The notes under the pieces are model-generated. The model was not told the origin of the DNA. It did no database searches and worked only from the letters and a program-made list of their open reading frames with translations. A stretch of 64,000 nt of DNA from a virus (Duplodnaviria; Heunggongvirae; Uroviricota; Caudoviricetes): the IMG/VR virus record IMGVR_UViG_2681813233_000007; one strand, given 5' to 3'. Below, piece after piece: positions 2,070 to 63,488 of this stretch. Position 1 is the stretch's first letter; each line of letters opens with the position of its first letter. The position numbers and the translations under genes were made by a program.

Positions 2070-4017
2070 CAATCCTTTACGAATTAATATTCAGTCTACT
2101 TTTGCTGATACGATCCCCGGCTATATGCCAAGTCGCTGGTCTTCAGAAGAATTAAGCGAAGATGACCTGATTTTTGAGGCGGCGACCTTAGAAGATATTG
2201 AGCTTGCCTATATGGGCAATGAAATTCTGGTTGTGTCTGACGAAGCTATGTTTGAGTCCATAACTACAACCAGAATTCGGTTAGCTCAAACAATGCGAGC
2301 TTTCGTCCGTGCGCTGAATCGTGGCCTGAATGGTACGAATATTATGGCAGGGACTGATGAAGCTGGGACCGATGAAAATGGACGTAATTGTATTGGTGGT
2401 GCGATTATCGGTCGTGTACGTCGGGTAGCTAATATCCCTGTTTTGACCGCGCAGATACCGCTTACTGACGGGCAGAGTACAAGCATAATTTTCCACTCTC
2501 CAACAGCTGACGGGGCAAAAATAAAGAGTAACGACGAGCTTGTTGCATTTCAGTTTTTACTTAATAAGCGTAACGTAACTCACGTTGTCGCCCCGATTGG
2601 TGGGAGAGATGTTTCTTTAAGCCAGGTATGCCAGGCGCTATCTAATTTGATTGAGCGTAACAGCGAAAAATTTAAGAAAGCAAAAGAGCGCCAGGACAAA
2701 ATGAAGGCAGATATTGAGAGTTATCTCAATGAAGCAGATAAACTGGCAGAAGAACGGTCAATAATGATTGATCAGGTGGACGTTGCGCAACGTGGGCTGA
2801 CTGAAAAGCGTGCTGCTCTTACGGAGATGCAAAAAAAACTTGATGCCCAGAAAGCTATCAATGAGGAATTACAAGCAAAACGCGATAAATTGTTGTCTGC
2901 TAAAGGTGAAAAAACGAAAGAACGAGCGTTTAGTGACCAGCTGCGACATGTAAAACATAATCTTGCCATTGACGGAAAAACAGTGCTTGATAATGGCGCT
3001 GAAGTTAATTATGTCACGTCCGGCAGTGACAATTTCGTTACGATAGTAGCACCTGAAGGTAAATTCAGTATTGATGCCAGTGCTGTCAAAGGAGGCAGTT
3101 TGGCAGATGCTGCAACCAAATTACTTAAAGCCTACCGAGAGCATAACGCAGATAAATATAAAGTTGATGTGTTACCAGGCCAGTTGGAAGACTCCGAACC
3201 ACCACAGACAGACCCCGAAACGAACCCAGTATTACAACCAGAGAGCCAAGATGTAGGTGAATACCACTATGCACTTCAATCTCGCCCGGCTGGTGTTGGT
3301 GCTGTTCCGGATGGAAATAAAGCCGTGCTTGATCGTCCTGACCAGGCTGATCAGTATTACGAATATGCTCGTCACGGTATCATTACGTATGACCGTAAAC
3401 TGACAGATGAAGAAGTCAGCCAGTACGAGTTGCTTTATCTTCCTGATGAAGATGAGCTGAAAGATTTTGCAGGCCAATTGGTTGCGTCCAGCATGTCGAA
3501 ACATATTGATGGCTATGTGGACCTGTTTGGCAGTGACCTGAAAACATTCAAGGCGCAAGTGAAAATTCTTTTCCGCAAAGCGTTTCCAAACGTGGCGTAT
3601 CCACTTAGTGATGGGGAGAACCTTTTCATTATGGACGTGTATAACGCCCTTCAAAATCATTCAAGCGAAGTAAAAACAGAGCATGTGGTTGAGCCAGAAT
3701 CACAACCACAACCACAACCACAACCACAACCACAACCACAACCAGCACCAGAACAGGAGTCGGAGCCAGAAGAAGCGGGTGAATCAGCAAGTGAAGCTGA
3801 TCAGGAAGCAGATAAAGCGCTGGAGTACCTGAAATCCGTGCCGGAGCAGTTTACATCCCGCGATCTGACGGTCATCAGTGCTGAACTTGATCATGTGCAG
3901 GAAGCAGCAAACGCTCTAATCAGTGCAGGTCGATACGACGAGAACGAAGCCACTGTGGGTGCAGCAGTTGACTACCTGATCAATATTCTGGCTGAAATTC
4001 AGCAGGGAGGTGTTTAA
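2059..4017 (+). CDS. Large head-associated protein with (PQ)n linker, DarA-like by size and context
   Basis: ~650 aa ORF with GGAGGA RBS; size and position match the P1 darA operon; no catalytic motif recognised. Confidence 0.45.
   Translation, partial: SMINNPLRINIQSTFADTIPGYMPSRWSSEELSEDDLIFEAATLEDIELAYMGNEILVVSDEAMFESITTTRIRLAQTMRAFVRALNRGLNGTNIMAGTDEAGTDENGRNCIGGAIIGRVRRVANIPVLTAQIPLTDGQSTSIIFHSPTADGAKIKSNDELVAFQFLLNKRNVTHVVAPIGGRDVSLSQVCQALSNLIERNSEKFKKAKERQDKMKADIESYLNEADKLAEERSIMIDQVDVAQRGLTEKRAALTEMQKKLDAQKAINEELQAKRDKLLSAKGEKTKERAFSDQLRHVKHNLAIDGKTVLDNGAEVNYVTSGSDNFVTIVAPEGKFSIDASAVKGGSLADAATKLLKAYREHNADKYKVDVLPGQLEDSEPPQTDPETNPVLQPESQDVGEYHYALQSRPAGVGAVPDGNKAVLDRPDQADQYYEYARHGIITYDRKLTDEEVSQYELLYLPDEDELKDFAGQLVASSMSKHIDGYVDLFGSDLKTFKAQVKILFRKAFPNVAYPLSDGENLFIMDVYNALQNHSSEVKTEHVVEPESQPQPQPQPQPQPQPAPEQESEPEEAGESASEADQEADKALEYLKSVPEQFTSRDLTVISAELDHVQEAANALISAGRYDENEATVGAAVDYLINILAEIQQGGV
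3701..3742 (+). repeat. (CACAAC)x7 hexanucleotide tandem repeat encoding a PQPQ linker
   Basis: Seven perfect CACAAC units inside the DarA-like ORF. Confidence 0.9.
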
Positions 4018-4385
4018 TGACCATCTCTGTTTTAGACCGCCTGAAATTAGGTAAAGAGCTATCAGATCTAATGCAGGCGCAGAAAACTGCGCCAGTATTG
4101 CAACGCGTCACCATTGGTAAGCAGATTGTTGATGTGATGCTGAAATTGGGCCTGGGGACTGCCGCGCAACCGGCAGCGGAACCGCAACAACAGGCTGATC
4201 CTGTTGTAGATGAAGTCCCTAAGATAGTGACTGACTTCCTGGGCGGTGTGTTCACAAAGTCCACACAAATGGAATTTATTGATGCGCTGCGTGGGATCTC
4301 AAACTATGTTGGCGAGTTCCTTACGTTGGAGCAGGCTAAAGAGCAGACCATAAGCTGGGTGAAAGCTAACGGTTATGCCGGGTAA
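4017..4385 (+). CDS. Hypothetical protein (DdrA-like position)
   Basis: 122 aa; ATG overlaps the upstream stop. Confidence 0.4.
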   Translation: MTISVLDRLKLGKELSDLMQAQKTAPVLQRVTIGKQIVDVMLKLGLGTAAQPAAEPQQQADPVVDEVPKIVTDFLGGVFTKSTQMEFIDALRGISNYVGEFLTLEQAKEQTISWVKANGYAG

Positions 4386-8652: not shown

Positions 8653-8737
8653 AGTGTATTTATATACACTGTTGATCCTGGTGGATGGGATCGAGTAGGA
8701 TCGCGGTCACTGCTCCGGTAGCGACTGCCAAAAAAGC

Positions 8738-26188: not shown

Positions 26189-26581
26189 ATGGAACAAATC
26201 AGCAGCGCAGAAATTGCGGATATCATGATCAGGGCTGACTGCTATCTGACAGTCACTGAAATTACCACTCTCGCCAAAGAAAAATACCCTCATCTCCATG
26301 TTTCACGAGTAAGTGTAACTAACATCATTCGTCATTTTGTTCGTTCAAGCAGGGCAATCTGTGAGCTGGATGATCGTGTGTATCCACGAAAATACTGGCT
26401 ACATGGTCTGAACGGATATCAGTTCAAGGTGCGCGGGCGCACGCCTGAATACGGTAGCTTACTGGTTAAAAACTGTAGCAGGAAATCAGTCGAACAGGCG
26501 CGAAAAGAGCAACGAGAGCTGGTGGACATGGCGAATAAGCTGTGGAATGCCGCCGTTAAAAAGCGTGGTGTTGCTTTATGA
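26189..26581 (+). CDS. Putative late-gene activator (Lpa-like by position)
   Basis: 130 aa, immediately upstream of pacA-like as lpa is in P1; stop overlaps the pacA start. Confidence 0.35.
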   Translation: MEQISSAEIADIMIRADCYLTVTEITTLAKEKYPHLHVSRVSVTNIIRHFVRSSRAICELDDRVYPRKYWLHGLNGYQFKVRGRTPEYGSLLVKNCSRKSVEQARKEQRELVDMANKLWNAAVKKRGVAL

Positions 26582-27942
26582 GTCTGGTTAATTGGGAGGA
26601 GCACCGCGCCCGCTTTATAGCGTTGCGTGAAGAAAAAGGGATCACTGTAAAGGAATACTGTGAGGAGCATGGCCTTAGCTTCAATACAGCCAGAAAGCAT
26701 CTCAATATGAAAAAAAATGAGGTGCGGTCGCAGGTAAAGACAACAAAAAAAAGCACCAAATCACCTGAAAAAAAACGGGCGGGAAGAGCAACAAAAAAGC
26801 TGGAAGAGGGCGCAGAAAAAACAAAATTTACAGAAATTGACAATTCGCAGGGTGCAGGTTCTTTCCGAAGTATGCCAAGAAAGAAAACTCCGGATCATGA
26901 AAGTAATACCAATAATAACAATGAGATAAAAGAATCTGTCAGGAGATCATTGCGCGAAAAAATGGCGAAAATGATCCCCGAAGAAGATAAAAGCGCCCCA
27001 AAAATTGAGGGATCTTCAGCAATGATCCCTGGCGGTGCTGTGCAACGTGCCACATTGCCCACTACGAATGTGGCTCGCGACATGATGAAGAACGGCGCAG
27101 AAGAACACCTGCGGTTAGCAATTCAAATGGCGCAAGAGCGCGCACTTCAGTATCAAAGCATTGTTGATCAGGAGGCCGAACGTCTACAGGCGGAAATAGA
27201 CGCCTTGGGCGATAAAGAGCCAGAAGGAATGCACCCTGGGCAGCGCCTTCTCGGTCTAATCAGTGACGCGGCCTACTACATGAATGATTTTATCAGTAGG
27301 TTGGCAGCTATATATCAGTCCGAACAAAAGCTGCGACAGGGGGATGAAAAGCTTCGTCAGAGCGCTCGCCAGCAAGCATTCAAAGAGGCTGAGGCCAGAG
27401 AAAAACTCGAATTAGCACGCCTACAGGCCGAACAGCGTGGCAAAGAGATTGAATATCGCATTGGCGCTGACGCACGCGCAGCCAGAGTTATCGCCGCCGC
27501 TATACGTATGCGTGAGCGCGAGGAACTGGATGATATCGGTGTTGCTGAATACATCGAGCGCCAGGGGGTCAGCGTCCCGGCTATCCTCGCGGCGCGCGCG
27601 GCGAAAGCTATCACTCTTCTCGAACCACCTGTTTCTGACGTCAATGATGTTGATGATGAACAGCTGGACAAAGAGGCAAGGGAGTTTGCGACGCTTCAGG
27701 CTAACCATCCGCAATGGCTGGCAGAGCGCCGGGCGGATGTGGCAACCATTGTTGAAGAATTGGGGTGCGGAGATTACGACCGCAATGGCGAGCGTAAAGC
27801 TGGAGAATTCGAGGCCAACGACGAAGAGCTGGATATTGACCCTTCGGCAACGGCTGAAATTTACGGTGATTATGATGCATCTGATGCAGGGTATGACGCC
27901 GGAGATGATGATATCGCGATAGAACCGCCGGAGGATGATTAA
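26578..27942 (+). CDS. Terminase small/recognition subunit (PacA-like)
   Basis: 454 aa, translationally coupled to the large subunit; contains a GATC cluster; Lys/Glu-rich. Confidence 0.55.
   Translation: MSLVNWEEHRARFIALREEKGITVKEYCEEHGLSFNTARKHLNMKKNEVRSQVKTTKKSTKSPEKKRAGRATKKLEEGAEKTKFTEIDNSQGAGSFRSMPRKKTPDHESNTNNNNEIKESVRRSLREKMAKMIPEEDKSAPKIEGSSAMIPGGAVQRATLPTTNVARDMMKNGAEEHLRLAIQMAQERALQYQSIVDQEAERLQAEIDALGDKEPEGMHPGQRLLGLISDAAYYMNDFISRLAAIYQSEQKLRQGDEKLRQSARQQAFKEAEAREKLELARLQAEQRGKEIEYRIGADARAARVIAAAIRMREREELDDIGVAEYIERQGVSVPAILAARAAKAITLLEPPVSDVNDVDDEQLDKEAREFATLQANHPQWLAERRADVATIVEELGCGDYDRNGERKAGEFEANDEELDIDPSATAEIYGDYDASDAGYDAGDDDIAIEPPEDD
26893..27027. other. Candidate pac site: cluster of five GATC within 135 bp inside the pacA-like gene
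   Basis: GATC at 26893, 26945, 26973, 27011, 27024; P1 pac is a Dam-regulated cluster of TGATCA/G elements inside pacA. Confidence 0.4.
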
Positions 27943-29450
27943 TGGCTGGAGGGCGCAAGATTAAATGCGTCACCAGCGATCCACGCTGGCGCGATATGGT
28001 AATCAAATACCGCTACAACTTTACCCAGGCTGTTGTCGATATTTTTGGGATGTTCCCCTCCCACCAGCAGCAGCAGATCATTCAGTCCGTGCAGGAAACG
28101 GGGAGTAGGACGACCGTCACGTCCGGACACGGAACGGGGAAGTCGTCCCTTACCGCGATGTTGCTGTTGATTTTCATGATCCTGTTCCCCGATGCCCGTG
28201 TCATCATTGTTGCTAACAAGATAGGCCAGGTAAAAACAGGCGTATTCAAATACGTTAAACAGTATTGGGCGAATGCAGTTAAGCGTCATGGGTGGTTGCA
28301 GACCTATTTTGTCCTCTCTGACACCATGTTTTATGAGCGCTCCCGTAAGGGGATTTGGGAAGTTCTCTGCAAAGGTTATCGACTCGGCAACGAAGAAGCG
28401 CTGGCGGGGGAACACGCGGCACATTTGCTTCTAATTCTGGATGAAGCATCTGGTATATCTGATAAGGCGATCGGCGTAATGACCGGTGCTCTTACTGAAG
28501 AAGATAACCGGATGTTGATGCTATCCCAGCCAACAAGGCCAAGTGGTTATTTTTACGATTCGCACCATTCTCAAGCAAAAACCCCAGACAACCCGAAAGG
28601 GATCTGGACAGCAATTGTTCTTAACTCGGAAGAATCACCGTTCGTCACACCACAATTCATCAAGCAGAAGCTTCTGGAATATGGGGGGCGCGATTCTATT
28701 GAGTACATGGTCAAGGTGCTTGGTCAGTTCCCACGAGAAATTAACGGCTATTTGCTTGGTCGTGATGAATGCGATCGCGCTGCTCGCCGCAAGGTGCTGT
28801 TGGAGAAAAACTGGGGATGGGTGGCAACGGCTGACGTTGGTAATGGGCGAGATAAGTCGGTCCTCAACATCTGCAAGGTATCTGGTCACAGGGATAAGCG
28901 GCGCGTTGTTAACTTTAAGGTAATGGAGATGCCTGGCACTATGGACCCATTGGCCTTTGCTGACTTCATATATAACGAATGTACGCCGGAAAAATACCCG
29001 AATATAACAATCGCGGTTGATGCTGATGGTTTTGGTTCTGATACGTGTGCGCAGTTGGTGCGTCGTGGTGCGAACCCGGTACGTATTCGGTGGGGAAAAC
29101 CCATGTTTGCGAACAAAGACAGGGAGCGATTTGTTAATCAGCGTGCCTACGCAAATATTATGGCGCGAGATGCCATAAAGTCAGGGCGTATGCGGATAGA
29201 CAGTGACCCTAAAACGGCAGAGCAAGCGTCAAAAATCCCCTTTTTACTGAATGAAGAAGGGAAAATGGCGATGATGCGCAAAGAGCACATGCGGCAAAAG
29301 CTAAACATCAAATCGCCTGACCGATGGGATACCTACTGCTTCACTATGCTGGTGGACTATGTGCCTGCTAATGAAGATATTGGTGCCGAAATGGCAACTT
29401 TCCGAGATCAGGTTCTGGCGGATATCGAAATGCCGGATCTGGATATATAA
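27942..29450 (+). CDS. pacB: Terminase large subunit (PacB-like)
   Basis: 502 aa; Walker A SGHGTGKSS, Walker B LLLILDEAS. Confidence 0.8.
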   Translation: MAGGRKIKCVTSDPRWRDMVIKYRYNFTQAVVDIFGMFPSHQQQQIIQSVQETGSRTTVTSGHGTGKSSLTAMLLLIFMILFPDARVIIVANKIGQVKTGVFKYVKQYWANAVKRHGWLQTYFVLSDTMFYERSRKGIWEVLCKGYRLGNEEALAGEHAAHLLLILDEASGISDKAIGVMTGALTEEDNRMLMLSQPTRPSGYFYDSHHSQAKTPDNPKGIWTAIVLNSEESPFVTPQFIKQKLLEYGGRDSIEYMVKVLGQFPREINGYLLGRDECDRAARRKVLLEKNWGWVATADVGNGRDKSVLNICKVSGHRDKRRVVNFKVMEMPGTMDPLAFADFIYNECTPEKYPNITIAVDADGFGSDTCAQLVRRGANPVRIRWGKPMFANKDRERFVNQRAYANIMARDAIKSGRMRIDSDPKTAEQASKIPFLLNEEGKMAMMRKEHMRQKLNIKSPDRWDTYCFTMLVDYVPANEDIGAEMATFRDQVLADIEMPDLDI

Positions 29451-29477: not shown

Positions 29478-30515
29478 TTACCAGAGCTTCGCGGCGTACT
29501 GCGTTTGGGGGAATGTGTATCCGTAACGTTCTTCGATTGCTTTGCCGTATTTTTTACGAGCTTCATTCAGTTTAATGCCGGTCAGGTCGTCTCCAGAGGC
29601 CATCATTACGTCTAACAATTCCAGATCCATTTTATCCAGCCTTGCCATTGCTTCACGTGATGTACGTATCTTACGTTCAATGATATGGCGAATAGCCGGA
29701 TCGGCATCCTCCAGCATCTTAGCGGATTTCTGCTTAAGGCTTTCATTGCGAATATCGATGTTCCTTAAGATGTACGACTTCGCAACGTAGCTTGGCTGGT
29801 GTTTTTCCAGGTCACGAACACGATATAAGTTAAAATCGCCGAGAAGGCTGCAAGGTACCGATTCGACGCCAGAATAAATTGTAATGCTCCGGCGTTCACC
29901 AACATTATTGACAACGGGGATCGTTGTCTTCGGTAGTCTTGCGAAAACCAATGCGCCATGTGCGCCAACTCTAAAGCGAGAAAGGGCATTGCTGCCTTCG
30001 ATGTTTGTTGTCAGCACAACATCTGTATATGCCTCTTTACGCGCCCGGTAGATCTCGCCTTCAGGCTCAGCTTCAAAGAAGCGCTGTTCTTCTTCAAGAG
30101 CACCTACGATTTGAGAAAAAACCCTATTTTTCAGGCTTTTCTTTATGATTTTGTCGTATTTTTTTAGCAATTGTTCACGTGTAAATGTACGTGTTGTTGT
30201 AGCGCTTTGCACAACGACATGCGTGCTTTGATTGGTGTCCTCAATGATGAATGGGATCGGAGAATATACAGACTCAACAATGTTCGACGCTTTGCCGTCG
30301 GCATCGCGGCACATGTCAACGAAGGCTTTCCATTCAGCAAGACATTTTTCAGCTTCTTCTAATATGTTTTGGTCATGCGTTAATGCAACATGGCGGAATT
30401 CCTCGCCAGCATAACTGGTATCATGGAAAACAGAGTTTGCGACCACCAGCTCTTTCCACCGTTCAGCGGTTTGCAGGAACCGTTTGTACTCTTTCTCGAT
30501 CGACTTCTTACTCAT
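29478..30515 (-). CDS. Putative primary repressor (C1-like, by position)
   Basis: 345 aa, convergent with pacB and next to the lox-type site as c1 is in P1; operator-like motif 12 bp upstream of its start. Confidence 0.4.
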   Translation of the reverse strand: MSKKSIEKEYKRFLQTAERWKELVVANSVFHDTSYAGEEFRHVALTHDQNILEEAEKCLAEWKAFVDMCRDADGKASNIVESVYSPIPFIIEDTNQSTHVVVQSATTTRTFTREQLLKKYDKIIKKSLKNRVFSQIVGALEEEQRFFEAEPEGEIYRARKEAYTDVVLTTNIEGSNALSRFRVGAHGALVFARLPKTTIPVVNNVGERRSITIYSGVESVPCSLLGDFNLYRVRDLEKHQPSYVAKSYILRNIDIRNESLKQKSAKMLEDADPAIRHIIERKIRTSREAMARLDKMDLELLDVMMASGDDLTGIKLNEARKKYGKAIEERYGYTFPQTQYAAKLW

Positions 30516-30725: not shown

Positions 30726-30757
30726 TAACTTTAAATAATTGGCATTATTTAAAGTTA
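30726..30757. other. rox recombination site (14-bp inverted repeats, 4-bp spacer)
   Basis: TAACTTTAAATAAT-TGGC-ATTATTTAAAGTTA; reverse complement of the rox sequence as I recall it; 150 bp upstream of the Cre-like gene. Confidence 0.85.
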
Positions 30758-37407: not shown

Positions 37408-38158
37408 GGTCCGCCTCATGTTTATCAGCCACCAGCGGCAATAAAGCCTTCGCCATTTCATGAACCAACATGGCATCAATGACGCCTAGCGTATGGCCCG
37501 GCTTAATCTTTAATGCGGCCTCAAGATAGCCTCTTTCCAGAGTGGTTTTTACGCTTTTCCTGGGCGCTTGTTGGGAACTATCCGGAAAATCCGGATGGTT
37601 CCCAGCCTCATAAGCTACCCGCAACCAGTGCATGAATGTTTCCGCAGACACACAACCGCAGTCCACATCGATTTTCCCGCGTTGCTGTTCCAGCCATTGC
37701 TCAAAATCTAACTTGTAAGCCTTACTTTCAGACTTAACTTTCTGAGACGCTATGCGAGCTGCTTCATACTGTTCACGAGTGACAACCGATGTAAACGCAC
37801 TGCGATCAAGGTCACTGATATCGCAAATAATGCCATCAATGGAATAATTCTTTGATGATTGGTAATTTTTATGGCGCGTACCAAAAAGAACCGTAGCGCG
37901 ACTACTACCTGGCATCGTAATGGATAGATGGCAAAAATCTTTTCCATCAGGCCATCCACGCCCCTTAGATAATTCCTTCACTAACAAGTCAATCAGTGTC
38001 ATAGCTTTACCATCCTTGCAAGGCGCTAAAGCTATTTTGGCAAGCTCCAATACTTCATCTGCTGTGTATCCAGCACCGTGACCATACATTTCGATACGGG
38101 AAATAATATCTGAAATACGCTCTTTAGTGATTCTTGTCATAGTTTTATTTCCTTGCAT
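37391..38158 (-). CDS. Hypothetical protein
   Basis: 255 aa ORF in the leftward operon. Confidence 0.45.
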   Translation of the reverse strand: MQGNKTMTRITKERISDIISRIEMYGHGAGYTADEVLELAKIALAPCKDGKAMTLIDLLVKELSKGRGWPDGKDFCHLSITMPGSSRATVLFGTRHKNYQSSKNYSIDGIICDISDLDRSAFTSVVTREQYEAARIASQKVKSESKAYKLDFEQWLEQQRGKIDVDCGCVSAETFMHWLRVAYEAGNHPDFPDSSQQAPRKSVKTTLERGYLEAALKIKPGHTLGVIDAMLVHEMAKALLPLVADKHEADHANES

Positions 38159-38346
38159 GGTTCGCCTTTACGGCAAACAGCTACACGGTCATTTCTTACA
38201 TTAACCACAGTCACCGTTCCGTCATCGCATTGAATAACGATGAAAGGGTGTTCATTCTCTTTTGTGCAATGTTGCTGTTCCCCTGCTGTAACAGTGAGGG
38301 GAATTAATAAAATAATAATTACTGCGAATTTACTAAATGTTGCCAT
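38137..38346 (-). CDS. Small secreted protein (signal peptide)
   Basis: 69 aa; N-terminal hydrophobic signal-like segment, 4 Cys in the mature part. Confidence 0.4.
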   Translation of the reverse strand: MATFSKFAVIIILLIPLTVTAGEQQHCTKENEHPFIVIQCDDGTVTVVNVRNDRVAVCRKGEPCKEIKL

Positions 38347-38370
38347 AGCAATCTTTCTTTCTGTTTTTCA

Positions 38371-38664
38371 TTATGGTTGAATCCAGTTATCTTCAATAGC
38401 AATGCTCAATCTTTGTAACCATTCTGCTAATTTCAGCATTGCTTCTCTTTCGCTTAAACCACGAGGAAAATCATCAAGCGATATTGTTGGCTTGAAGTTT
38501 CCCAAATTATCCATTTCAACGGTCAGATTTTGCTCCAGCACGGTATTCCTTACGCGGCTATTGTGCCGAAGCAAATATACTGAACGTGATTTATTGGTTT
38601 TGTGGTCGAACGTATATTCGGTAAGTATCATCTGGCTTCCGCCATGATTATTACCGCGCCACAT
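38371..38664 (-). CDS. Hypothetical protein
   Basis: 97 aa ORF. Confidence 0.35.
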   Translation of the reverse strand: MWRGNNHGGSQMILTEYTFDHKTNKSRSVYLLRHNSRVRNTVLEQNLTVEMDNLGNFKPTISLDDFPRGLSEREAMLKLAEWLQRLSIAIEDNWIQP

Positions 38665-38971
38665 AATTACTCCGTGTTAATTTTACCTTTATCGCGAACA
38701 CCTTTACCGGTTTATCGCCGAAGTGCGGGTGTGTGATTATCTTGATTTCATAGCCGTCATACGGAACATCAATTCTGCGGCTGGAATCGTCGCGCTTCGG
38801 ATATCCCTTTGTGATAATCAGGCGGTCATACTTACGGTTAACGAGGCGCTTATTCCAGTAGTCATTACACAGGCGATACTCTTCCGTTTTCTCCCCGCGA
38901 ATCATGGCATCGAAGTATTCACCTTTAACGGCAAGTTGCAGGTTAGCCATTACCTCACCTCCAGTCTCCAT
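38651..38971 (-). CDS. ASCH/PUA-like small protein (hypothetical)
   Basis: 106 aa; GEYFDAMIRGEKTEEYR resembles an ASCH-type N-terminus. Confidence 0.35.
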   Translation of the reverse strand: METGGEVMANLQLAVKGEYFDAMIRGEKTEEYRLCNDYWNKRLVNRKYDRLIITKGYPKRDDSSRRIDVPYDGYEIKIITHPHFGDKPVKVFAIKVKLTRSNYVAR

Positions 38972-39210
38972 ACCGCCTGACCAATCCGGCTGGCATGGGT
39001 ATCTTTGGATACTGTTCCGTCTTTAGCCAGCTCCATAAGAATTTTGCGCAAATCTGCCGAACGCCATTCTTCATCAGGAAATTCCTTCTCCATTGCCAAC
39101 CGCAGATTCCAGGTTGCCATCCTGAATGGATATTCCCCGCCGAGAGCTTTATCTTGCAGGGCAGCCCGGGAACGCATCACCTGCAAAACCTTCTCTTTTA
39201 CATCCATCAT
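38950..39210 (-). CDS. Hypothetical protein
   Basis: 86 aa ORF. Confidence 0.35.
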   Translation of the reverse strand: MMDVKEKVLQVMRSRAALQDKALGGEYPFRMATWNLRLAMEKEFPDEEWRSADLRKILMELAKDGTVSKDTHASRIGQAVWRLEVR

Positions 39211-39836
39211 TCCGCCTCCTGCGGCGGTTCTGGTAGCGGCATCCAGTGAGTTACTTTCGATGCCGGTTCTTCCCCATCGTCAGTAACTGCCCACCATTTG
39301 TTTCTCGACCAATCGTAATACCCTTCGAAGGTATTGCACTCAGTCCAGCCGTAAGACTTACCCCAACACCAAACATACTGTTTATCGTTCGGCATTCGCT
39401 CACTACAGCTTATCCAACTATCCGGAATTACCGGAGAGTTGCCATTTACATCGAAGTTTGGTTCTGCGTCCTGAACTAGGAGGATGTAACCATTCTTGGC
39501 TGTATCAAGTTCTAACGCCTCGGTTACGGTACCGAAATAGCGATTACCTAAATCCGCATCACAAGTGCTTACATCAATGGAAACCTCCATGCCTTCGATT
39601 AATTCTGGCAAGTTGTAAGTTTGGCTTACAGGCTCTGCTTCCAGTGATGCCAGTGCAATTCGTGCCAGCTCACGCACAACTTCAGGGGGCGCGTAACGGT
39701 CATTCAGGTCATCCCACAGGCGTAGCATGTTATCGCTACCAGGGTGAACATCCTCGTTAGTTCCGGCAAGCGCACTAATAACCTCATCGGCTGCTTCAAT
39801 AATTTTCTGTGCCTGTTCTCTGGTAATAGTGGTCAT
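39207..39836 (-). CDS. Hypothetical protein with C-terminal DUF551-like Trp-rich segment
   Basis: 209 aa; C-terminus ...WCWGKSYGW...KVTHWMPLPEPP. Confidence 0.4.
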   Translation of the reverse strand: MTTITREQAQKIIEAADEVISALAGTNEDVHPGSDNMLRLWDDLNDRYAPPEVVRELARIALASLEAEPVSQTYNLPELIEGMEVSIDVSTCDADLGNRYFGTVTEALELDTAKNGYILLVQDAEPNFDVNGNSPVIPDSWISCSERMPNDKQYVWCWGKSYGWTECNTFEGYYDWSRNKWWAVTDDGEEPASKVTHWMPLPEPPQEAE

Positions 39837-40042
39837 TTGTTAATCCTTAAAACTTTATGCCCTGGCGCAAAAGCACGTGTTTTGTCTTTGCTTATTCGCC
39901 AGCCATCCTTACGTGCCTCTTTTGCACAGCCAGCCCATGACGTACCGATATATTCACCGAAGTCTGGTACTGGATATACACCTTCCGTACACTGGCGGCA
40001 GTCACAATAGAGATGCATGGTGTAACTTGCGGCAATAGCCAT
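39833..40042 (-). CDS. Small Cys-rich protein (hypothetical)
   Basis: ORF-track 39833..40114 trimmed to the internal Met (MAIAASY...); CxC...C.C pattern. Confidence 0.3.
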   Translation of the reverse strand: MAIAASYTMHLYCDCRQCTEGVYPVPDFGEYIGTSWAGCAKEARKDGWRISKDKTRAFAPGHKVLRINK

Positions 40043-40404
40043 ATCACTCTCCTTTAGTACGCAAGTGGTTTTTCCAGCGGTTTTGCGCCGCGCTGGGCTT
40101 TTTGCAAAAACCACAATCCATCATCCCGTAATGTTTCATTAACCCCATCCGTCGGTTGCTGAGTCTCACCCACTGCCAGACGCCAGGACCGTTTCTGCGA
40201 ACTAATAGGATTTTTGCTTTACGGTTTTTCATCGCTTTGCTCTCCTGCGTTTCTTTGCTGCTCGTCGTGCCGCCGCAATACCTGTATGGCGGCGCTTTGG
40301 TGCCGGGATGATGTTGTCAGCCATCAGGACATGCGGCTTTGTAATTAGCGCAGAAGCCCAAAAACGAGTCGGATACGGTAACAAGCCGATACATGCCACA
40401 CGCA

Positions 40405-40884
40405 TTACTCACCTTCTTTGATGCGAATGCCTGCGGCGCGTGGCACATTAACTTCCACGATGCGCACTGTTGGTTTGTACATCTCAATCGCTGTCAGCCA
40501 GTCAGCGCCGGTCATACGCTTTTCTGCATCGCCATTAGTCCACTTAACCGGTACACCAATAGCCTTCATCGCAATTTCTATTTCCCCGGCAATGGCGCTT
40601 TTCCCGCAACCAGTAAAACCAGATACAACGACAAGAACTTCGCCTTTTGCTGGTTTTATTTCCCGCGCCTCCACCTCTGCAATTCGGCACATAGCATCGA
40701 TATTTGTGTCTTCCTGGCGTTTAACTTCATCCAATAATGCCAACGCGATATCTGGCGAAAAGTGCTTCATAAAATCGTTAAGCGCATTAATTCGCTGATC
40801 GAAAGGCATTACAGGCGCTTCACCAGCAATTTTTGTTTTTTCAGCAATTTCACGAAGCTTTTGATAGTCAATTTTGTTTGTCAT
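40405..40884 (-). CDS. Small P-loop NTPase (hypothetical)
   Basis: 159 aa; Walker A-like VVVSGFTGCGKSA. Confidence 0.45.
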   Translation of the reverse strand: MTNKIDYQKLREIAEKTKIAGEAPVMPFDQRINALNDFMKHFSPDIALALLDEVKRQEDTNIDAMCRIAEVEAREIKPAKGEVLVVVSGFTGCGKSAIAGEIEIAMKAIGVPVKWTNGDAEKRMTGADWLTAIEMYKPTVRIVEVNVPRAAGIRIKEGE

Positions 40885-61216: not shown

Positions 61217-63488
61217 CCTTCGATATGGTTCAGTTTGCAGTGGAATTGAAGCCGCGAGCATTGCCTGGGAACCGTTGGGTATGCGTCCGGCGTGGTTTGC
61301 TGAAATTGAGCCTTTTCCATCTGCCGTTCTTGCGCACCGCTGGCCTCATGTCGCCAACCTTGGCGATATGACAAAACTTGCCAAAAAAGTCCTGGCTGGG
61401 GAAATCGAATCCCCTGATGTGCTCGTCGGGGGAACACCTTGTCAGGCATTCAGTATCGCGGGATTACGTGGTGGGCTTGATGATGAGCGTGGCGCGCTAA
61501 CTTTAAAGTATGTGGAGCTTGCAAATGCAATTGACGACAAACGGGCTGAGTCATTTCTCAAACCAGCCGTTATCGTCTGGGAAAATGTCCCAGGAGTCTT
61601 GTCATCGGCAGATAACGCCTTCGGATGTTTCCTTGCCGGATTGGCTGGAGAAGATGCGCCATTTGAACCAGGTGATCGACCTGAATCAGGAAAAAGTAAC
61701 ACGTTCTGGCGGTGGGATGGCAAAACCGGTTGCCATGCTCCAAAGTGGCCGCAGTGTGGTTGTATTTATGGACCGCAGCGAAAAGTGGCCTGGAGAATCC
61801 TTGATGCCCAATACTTCGGAGTGGCACAACGACGCCGACGCGTGTTTGTTGTCGCAAGTGCTCGAACAGACCTCGATCCCGCAACGGTACTTTTTGAGTT
61901 CGAAGGCGTGCGCCGGAATATTGCGCCGAGCCGAAAAAAGAAGGAAATCGCTTCCGCCATTATTGCAAATGGCGCTGCAATCAGTGGCGAAAGCCTAAAT
62001 CCATGCCTACACGCTGACATGCCACCCGGTATGAAATCGACGAAAGCCGTAAACGCTTTCAGGATGGCAGCATTTGGGGAATATATTGACGATGAAACCG
62101 CATCGACAGTAAAGGCAAGAGATTTTAAAGATGCCACTGACCTTGCCGTTTTTAGCAGCACAGGAGCAGGTTTTTGGTCAGAAGGGCATGGTACATTGCG
62201 GGCACGTGAGCAAGAAAGCCATGAGCATCTTGTTACATTGGCTTTTCCTGAGCGTATGAGCGGTACACAACATGCTGCAACTAAGAATACTTCACCATCT
62301 CTAATGGCTAAAAATCCAACAGCTGTTTGCTATGAAGTAAGAAACGCAGAAGTAGCTGTCCGCCGTCTTACCCCTGTCGAATGTGAAAGGCTGCAAGGTT
62401 TTCCTGAGGGGCATACGTTGATCCCGACGGAAAAGCGTAAAAAAGTTTCTTCAGATGAACTGGCATACCTTCGCAATCACTATCCAGATTTAAGCGAAGA
62501 AGAGGCCGCGATGCTTGCAGCTGACGGACCGCGTTACAAAGCGATCGGCAACAGCATGGCAGTTCCTGTTATGCAATGGATAGGGTGTCGCATTCTTGCG
62601 ACCGTAGCGGATAAACAGCAAAAAACAATAAATACCATTACCTACACAAGAAAACTCCGGACTCCGGATGAATATGAACGCCCAATATTCAAATGGGTAG
62701 GCGGTAAATTCTCAGAGTTGCCTACAGTGCTTGAGCATCTACCACACGGCAAGCGGTTAATAGAACCATTCGTTGGTGGCGGTTCCGTATTTACGAATGC
62801 AGGATTTCGCCACAACCTGCTTAATGATATTAACGGTGACCTGATTAACTTCTATCAGACATTGCAGCGAGAGGGACATTCGCTCGTCACGCTGGCATAT
62901 AGTTTTTTCAAAAATTACAACAACGCTGACGCTTACCTCGAAGTGCGTGAGGCATTTAACAGAGGAAAGTATGACCAACTACATCATGCTGCTGCCTTTT
63001 TGTACCTTAATCGGCACTGTTTTAATGGCGTAACGCGGTACAACCAAAATGGCGAGTTCAACGTAGGGTATGGCAAATACAAAGCGCCCTACTTCCCACA
63101 TGCAGAGATGGAGGCATTTTTGGCTGATGACGTACTCAAAAACACTTCCTTTGTATCAGGTGACTTTGCTAGCGTCATTGAGGCGGCTGGTGAAGACGAT
63201 GTGATTTTTTGTGATCCGCCGTATGAACCGCTTCCGGATACAGAGGGATTTACCAGCTATTCAGGAAATAGCTTCCGTTTCGACGAACAGAAACGGCTTG
63301 TATCACTGTTGGTGGATGCCCACCAGCGCGGCGCTAAGGTAGTGATAACAAATAGTGGTGCTCCAAACATCCGTGAACTATATGAAGGAAACGGGTTTAA
63401 AGTACATCATATGGCAGCCAGACGGTCGGTTTCCTGCAAGGCGTCAACACGTGTAGTTGCTAACGATATAATTGCAATAATGAAGTAA
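61194..63488 (+). CDS. dmt: Bifunctional DNA methyltransferase: N-terminal C5-cytosine MTase fused to C-terminal Dam-like N6-adenine MTase
   Basis: [12 protein letters not shown] (PCQ) and ENVPG in the N-half; KWVGGK and DPPY in the C-half; start overlaps the rdgC stop. Confidence 0.85.

Follow-up and report, generated by a model that had tools for sequence, protein, structure and literature searches.

Five closely spaced GATC tetranucleotides inside a pacA-like gene raise the question whether they mark the pac site of the virus, and whether cutting at this site is under the control of DNA methylation. In phage P1, pac covers 161–162 bp inside pacA; its seven TGATCA/G hexamers form one block of four and one of three, and its cutting is regulated by Dam methylation. 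The P1 record annotates an IHF site and four primary pac cut positions, and both the cuts and the IHF site fall between four TGATCA (pacA offsets 195–229) and three TGATCA/G (offsets 325–348). Hence, the view of P1 pac as a cluster of GATC hexamers within pacA, from which the original prediction started, is borne out by the placement of these elements among the hexamers. P1 pac has been described as a segment of 161 bp with seven hexamers, at which cutting is controlled by methylation (PMC10028697). For the present locus, which was analysed in the context of the whole 64,000-bp stretch of viral DNA (from here: the window), our reading is that the array at positions 26892–27028 is probably the pac site of a D6-type phage-plasmid, or at least the recognised part of it. 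As far as can be judged from sequences, the comparison with relatives is decisive for this reading, whereas the density of the GATC sites alone is weak evidence.

The gene that hosts the candidate pac array, pacA (26578..27942, plus strand), encodes the predicted pacase A subunit of 454 aa, a small-terminase-like recognition subunit. It is preceded by the ORF lpa (26189–26581) and followed by pacB (27942..29450, plus strand), the gene for the terminase large subunit with its ATPase and nuclease, while c1 (29478–30515) is located on the strand opposite to pacA and pacB. The gene names were taken from a P1-like plasmid prophage, Escherichia phage D6, with which the block lpa-pacA-pacB-c1 shares 99.5% identity; the same value was obtained for pacA compared to D6 pacA. 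A rox recombination site at 30726..30757, 3.7 kb downstream of the array, matches exactly the annotated rox of AY753669 and is identical to the annotated D6 rox, the target of Dre. D6-type phage-plasmids are present in 99 of 5426 complete E. coli genomes (about 2%), always on plasmids, and were also found in Salmonella and Shigella. The original prediction had further assigned a Dam-like domain to Dmt. This domain is present in a dmt-like ORF for a bifunctional DNA methylase (61281..63488, plus strand), with a match to PF02086 (Dam-class N6-adenine methylase) at aa 472–716 (E=3.6e-56), in addition to a second domain, PF00145 (C5-methylase, E=1.2e-32), and a match to PHROG 116. The Dam-class domain could methylate GATC sites, and in encoding a methylase of this class the D6-type element resembles P1.

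Sequence similarity places the D6-type gene upstream of pacB as a true but distant homologue of PacA. Its product shares 21% identity with P1 PacA over the full length (~430 aa; BLASTP, E=2e-9), and the neighbouring PacB shares 56% identity with P1 PacB over 488 aa. PacA matched PHROG 1711 ('terminase', E=1.8e-183), with the small-terminase PHROGs 370 and 51 on its N-terminus, while a Pfam search returned no family above threshold for PacA, a weak HTH_23 match at aa 7–42 being located below the cut-off. PacB matched PHROG 2 (terminase large subunit) and, again weakly and below the Pfam cut-off, Terminase_6N. No relative of PacA was found among the solved structures searched. In an alignment of eight lineages, the invariant residues W6, H9, G21, Y27, L33, N36-T37-A38-R39 and L42 constitute the core of an N-terminal helix-turn-helix, which is followed by a variable, gap-rich linker and then by a conserved C-terminal part. 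The designation of the gene as pacA-like was thus appropriate, with homology to P1 PacA, the N-terminal helix-turn-helix in common with it and pacB adjoining. A previous survey had stated that the D6 subgroup (P1-g2) carries only pacB homologues, and suggested that it is less likely to include general transducers (PMC7969092). With PacA as the query in a tblastn search at 1e-5, P1 was not reached because the match is too weak, and this may be the reason why only pacB was reported for the D6 subgroup. The distant PacA corrects the impression of PacA absence conveyed by that survey.

The five GATC sites are located at 26893, 26945, 26973, 27011 and 27024. They occupy 135 bp (26893–27027) at offsets 316–450 of the 1365 nt of pacA, which corresponds to codons 106–151 in the first third of the ORF and agrees with the position originally predicted. 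The whole window contains 221 GATC in 64,000 bp, on average one in about 290 bp, and the local density is about ten times this average. A GATC scan of the entire element, which had been proposed as background, identified the pacA cluster as the densest group of five sites; the next groups span 225 bp, overlapping the pacA cluster, and 270 bp (3799–4068), the latter being the next independent one. The claim of a density far above random expectation holds for this tenfold local excess but not for its significance across the window: when 221 sites were placed at random, 20% of the trials produced at least one group of five sites within 135 bp (P=0.20), which is why density by itself carries little weight window-wide. 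For the first third of pacA alone, the probability of such a cluster is roughly 0.001, an estimate derived from the 20% figure.

The window-wide P value of 0.20 is compatible with an accidental cluster, and a protein-level constraint could have the same effect if the GATC tetranucleotides were a by-product of conserved D-H, M-I-P and G/R-S residues; M-I-P (twice) and D-H (once) are indeed conserved. The comparison with relatives bears directly on this explanation. The pacA sequences were obtained from plasmid records, from species-representative genomes found through PacB and from IMG/VR. Of the 140 site instances that 28 distinct pacA sequences of the D6 group provide for these five positions, 138 have retained GATC, and this set includes several lineages which are 62–65% identical to the window at offsets 251–500, less than their gene average of 70–75%. 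Across four deep lineages, 123 of the 250 columns in this stretch and 14% of its 4-nt windows are invariant, while the GATC are invariant in five out of five cases (P=5.5e-5). Six runs of at least 6 nt are invariant, and four of these correspond to the repeats, namely CGGATCA, GATCATT, AAATGATCCC and AATGATCCC, and outside the array no comparable conservation at the DNA level was found within offsets 251–500. Two natural variants, 99% and 95% identical, have GATC replaced by GACC at repeat 2 or 3 (L034:2868–2871 and L054:2896–2899), which implies that single repeats are dispensable or that packaging of these copies is impaired.

According to prediction, the part of PacA that is encoded by the array is a disordered linker, and it is otherwise the least conserved part of this protein. 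AlphaFold, run on the single sequence, gave a low-confidence model (pLDDT 62.6) in which this linker connects, poorly ordered, the N-terminal helices to a long helical region. The GATC sites span all three codon phases (0, 1 and 2), and the same DNA motif is therefore read in three different ways. At repeats 2 and 4, the encoded residues switch between R-S and G-S among relatives, yet GATC is retained. The synonymous choices within the array are always those that preserve GATC (ATC in 8/8, GAT in 4/4, TCN in 8/8 and NGA in 8/8 cases), compared to 36% for ATC, 63% for GAT and 53% for TCN elsewhere in pacA, and the neighbouring synonymous position, the third base of the proline codon CCN, varies freely. 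Such clusters recur, moreover, in 19 pacA lineages. The codon choices indicate that the constraint on the five sites acts at the level of the DNA and not of the protein. Chance or protein-level constraint is ruled out to a large extent by these codon and conservation tests, and we give it almost no credence.

The array consists of five GATC-containing repeats. An asymmetric element with the consensus AATGATCC, often AAATGATCCCT, fits all five sites in the orientations −, −, +, −, +. Repeat 1 (26892..26899, minus strand) reads CATGATCC and encodes D106-H107 (GAT CAT), whereas repeat 2 (26944..26951, minus strand) reads AATGATCT and encodes R123-S124; the invariant runs CGGATCA and GATCATT belong to repeats 1 and 2, respectively. 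Repeat 3 (26970..26977) and repeat 5 (27021..27028), both on the plus strand and both matching AATGATCC, encode M132-I133-P134 and M149-I150-P151, respectively; AAATGATCCC is invariant in the former and AATGATCCC in the latter. Repeat 4 (27010..27017, minus strand) reads GAAGATCC and is slightly degenerate, as is repeat 2 in the window, while relatives carry AATGATCC or GATGATCT at the position of repeat 4. The start-to-start spacings are 52, 28, 38 and 13 bp. One relative (L004) possesses four perfect AAATGATCCCT 11-mers. Allowing up to one mismatch to AATGATCC, four matches fall within 129 bp of the window (P about 0.004), a value to which we attach little weight because the motif was derived from the same data.

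Between repeats 1 and 2 there is a spacer of 44 bp (26900..26943), the longest in the array, which is A+T-rich and conserved and contains the invariant ATAACA at 26915–26920; it is a possible, if speculative, region of bending or cutting. Inside the array, no IHF consensus with up to one mismatch was found, and the same is true for the D6-group sequences with the exception of one lineage. The sequence TAACAATGAGATA at 26916–26928 resembles the P1 IHF site AAACAAAGAGTTA only loosely. Some 125 bp beyond the downstream end of the array, at 27151–27163, there is a perfect IHF consensus (TATCAAAGCATTG) beside a TGATCA at 27165–27170. This consensus was rejected as a candidate: the diverged D6-group lineages have conserved neither element, and both are therefore probably there by chance.

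Repeat 2 forms an inverted repeat with repeat 3, and repeat 4 with repeat 5. These could be the arms of a hairpin, in the mRNA or in the DNA, through which translation of pacA is regulated, in which case the GATC would be incidental. The RNA fold predicted for 26880–27040 is more stable than those of shuffled sequences (z=−3.07), and perfect inverted repeats of 10–11 nt are present in relatives. Nevertheless, the covariation of 0.115 compares to 0.110 for shuffles and was reached by 161 of 500 of these. Changes in the arms, among them the GACC of the two variants and an A that three lineages carry at repeat 4, are uncompensated, the helices outside the repeats are just 59–65% paired, an Rfam search of the array gave no match, and repeat 1 has no partner. 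A regulatory hairpin is in our estimation very unlikely to account for the array.

Read as a pac site, the array has several properties in common with that of P1. It is located in the first third of pacA with pacB directly downstream (P1 offsets ~195–350), and it is composed of several short repeats, each of which holds the Dam target GATC. The distance to the recombination site is similar as well: the P1 record places pac at 90,806 and lox about 4 kb downstream of it, at 94,784, and rox is found at approximately this distance here. Other properties set the two apart. The D6-type repeat AATGATCC is of the TGATCC type, asymmetric and alternates in orientation, whereas the P1 repeat is TGATCA/G; neither TGATCA nor TGATCG occurs at any of the five sites on either strand (0/5). 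The five D6-type repeats form one compact array of 135 bp with a largest gap of 48 bp, no second block and no IHF consensus, whereas P1 possesses two blocks about 90 bp apart, around a core with the IHF and cut sites. The original prediction had cautioned that the sites are not perfect TGATCA/G hexamers and that recognition might differ from P1, and both points proved to be well taken. A pac site here would be an element of the expected kind, and its layout is very probably that of a rearranged relative of P1 pac.

Clusters of GATC in this part of pacA extend beyond the D6 group. All 19 representative pacB-linked pacA lineages, which include P1 as well as lineages from Pantoea, Xenorhabdus, Serratia, Citrobacter, Rosenbergiella and Vibrio, contain five to nine GATC at offsets 120–480 (14–25 per kb), compared to 2.4–5.1 GATC per kb in the flanks (pooled ratio 5.0). 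The P1-group phage-plasmids of Pantoea, Enterobacter, Xenorhabdus, Serratia, Citrobacter and Rosenbergiella resemble the D6 group in having their clusters at pacA offsets of about 150–480. Unlike the D6 group, most of these relatives possess two blocks, with three to seven TGATCA at a spacing of 12 bp on the left and two to three repeats on the right. The interpretation of the array as a pac site is thus supported by the homology of PacA and PacB, by a conservation of GATC beyond that of the surroundings and by clusters throughout the group, including P1.

Two of the IMG/VR sequences (L056 and L058; PacA 55% identical) combine a left block of GGGATCAT repeats at offsets 157, 169 and 181 with five D6-type right-hand sites (380–471), and the L056 lineage shares with the D6 group both the GGGATCAT/ATGATCC repeat and a helix-turn-helix with the motif NTARKH. 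Their layout looks intermediate between the P1-like two-block arrangement and the single D6 array; compared to it, the D6 group looks like the right-hand array alone. In Vibrio diabolicus (L023), the gene upstream of that for PacB (57% identical) lacks the NTAR helix-turn-helix motif and contains two blocks of three GATC at offsets 167–196 and 319–362, with the flanks GCGATCG and TTGATCG.

The type of repeat goes together with the helix-turn-helix of PacA, NTARKH being found with the TGATCC type and NTARRY or NTARRE with TGATCA. This pairing, which represents one evolutionary split only, is consistent with co-evolution of the protein and its site. It is conceivable, albeit doubtful, that the D6 group rebuilt the P1 signal through the loss of the left block and the IHF-bent core, a change of the repeat from the near-palindromic TGATCA/G to the asymmetric AATGATCC and of the PacA helix from NTARRY/RE to NTARKH, while each repeat kept its Dam target. 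If so, methylation sensing would be the conserved core of the signal and sequence specificity its changeable part, and P1-type and D6-type phage-plasmids residing in one cell would be orthogonal in packaging.

Packaging signals within the gene for the protein that recognises them are familiar from the headful phages P22, SPP1 and Sf6, whose pac sites are located within small-terminase genes, as the array is here. To our knowledge, these sites lack GATC repeats and no methylation control is known for them. Clustered GATC are also used for Dam/SeqA functions at replication origins and at some promoters. At P1 oriR and E. coli oriC, closely spaced Dam sites similar to those of the array are read by Dam and SeqA, and the methylation state serves as a switch. 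With this precedent, and with a second tight GATC triplet upstream of repL in the window (8674–8702), the repeats might have a different role of this kind and not one in packaging, for instance in the timing of pacA/pacB expression or in sequestering newly replicated DNA. However, the clusters at oriR and oriC are situated beside replication genes and DnaA boxes and not in a terminase gene, whereas the array is intragenic, about 300 nt past the start codon, at a position within pacA that matches the experimentally defined pac of P1. Unlike at oriR and oriC, its conserved flanks make up an asymmetric motif of 8–9 nt that tracks the PacA lineage, and SeqA or Dam alone need no such flanks. We regard a Dam/SeqA role outside packaging as quite improbable.

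If the array is the pac site, then by analogy to P1 the N-terminal helix-turn-helix of PacA would bind the AATGATCC repeats, and PacB, recruited by PacA, would cut nearby. As in P1, cutting of a bound site would hinge on the methylation state of the repeats. A Dam target in every repeat together with a Dam-class methylase of its own suggests that in this element, too, methylation controls the cutting, which probably requires that the GATC within the array are methylated at adenine. Headful packaging would then proceed in the direction of pacB, c1 and rox. In P1, packaging runs from pac to lox, and the redundancy of the first headful thus includes lox. The same pac-to-lox/rox geometry in the D6-type element fits the same packaging logic: rox would be contained in the terminally redundant part of the first headful, allowing circularisation by Dre.

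From the homology to P1 we infer that the first virion DNA end, generated by PacA and PacB, would be located within the array. Alternatively, the array might serve for PacA binding only, with the DNA being cut some distance away and no end within the 135-bp interval, a separation known from phages in which pac is recognised in one region and cut in another. We consider this unlikely. A central core between two blocks and a P1-like IHF site are absent from the array, as a distant cut would allow, and the sole contig break that was observed is at the edge of the array and not at its centre. In IMG genome 2537562191, contig L059 ends with ...CGGATCATGAAAATAA and contig L048 starts with ATGAAAATAATGC..., the two overlapping by 10 nt (ATGAAAATAA). 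The break is situated just right of repeat 1, equivalent to about 26897–26906 in the window. Either a physical end of the DNA or an artefact of assembly could explain the break, which we treat as an anecdotal lead; among the other 18 viral contigs and 5 metagenome contigs with the array, none ends at the edge of repeat 1. Speaking against a distant cut, the cuts of P1 fall between the repeat blocks, the conserved A+T-rich spacer of 44 bp could hold the cut, and no second stretch within offsets 251–500 is similarly conserved at the DNA level.

A literature search that did not extend to the D6 genome publication by Gilcrease and Casjens (2018) yielded no end-mapping or pac description for D6-type virion DNA; hence, a prior description is possible. 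The presence of a distant PacA together with a P1-like GATC-repeat signal suggests that the D6 subgroup probably shares the methylation-sensitive headful route of packaging with P1. While a specialist would expect a pac site at this place, the altered architecture and the paired change of the repeat and the PacA helix are useful, the latter as a natural experiment on the evolution of pacase specificity. A defined pac segment of ~150 bp would permit the development of D6-based phagemids or transduction tools without cross-reaction with P1.

The GATC scan yielded further observations in other parts of the window. Overall, GATC is mildly under-represented, with 221 instances compared to 252 expected from dinucleotide shuffles (99 of 100 shuffles contained at least 221), and this despite the encoded Dam-class methylase. 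A stretch of 2.99 kb (37808–40796) is free of GATC, with a single further GATC before 42236, although its GC content is ordinary (0.39–0.51); at one site per 290 bp, such a stretch is very unlikely to have arisen by chance. Conversely, the triplet at 8674–8702 combines three GATC in 29 bp (TTGATCCTGGTGGATGGGATCGAGTAGGATCG) between the pro-like gene and the repL-like gene for lytic replication; it is a possible Dam-sensitive element of a promoter or an origin.
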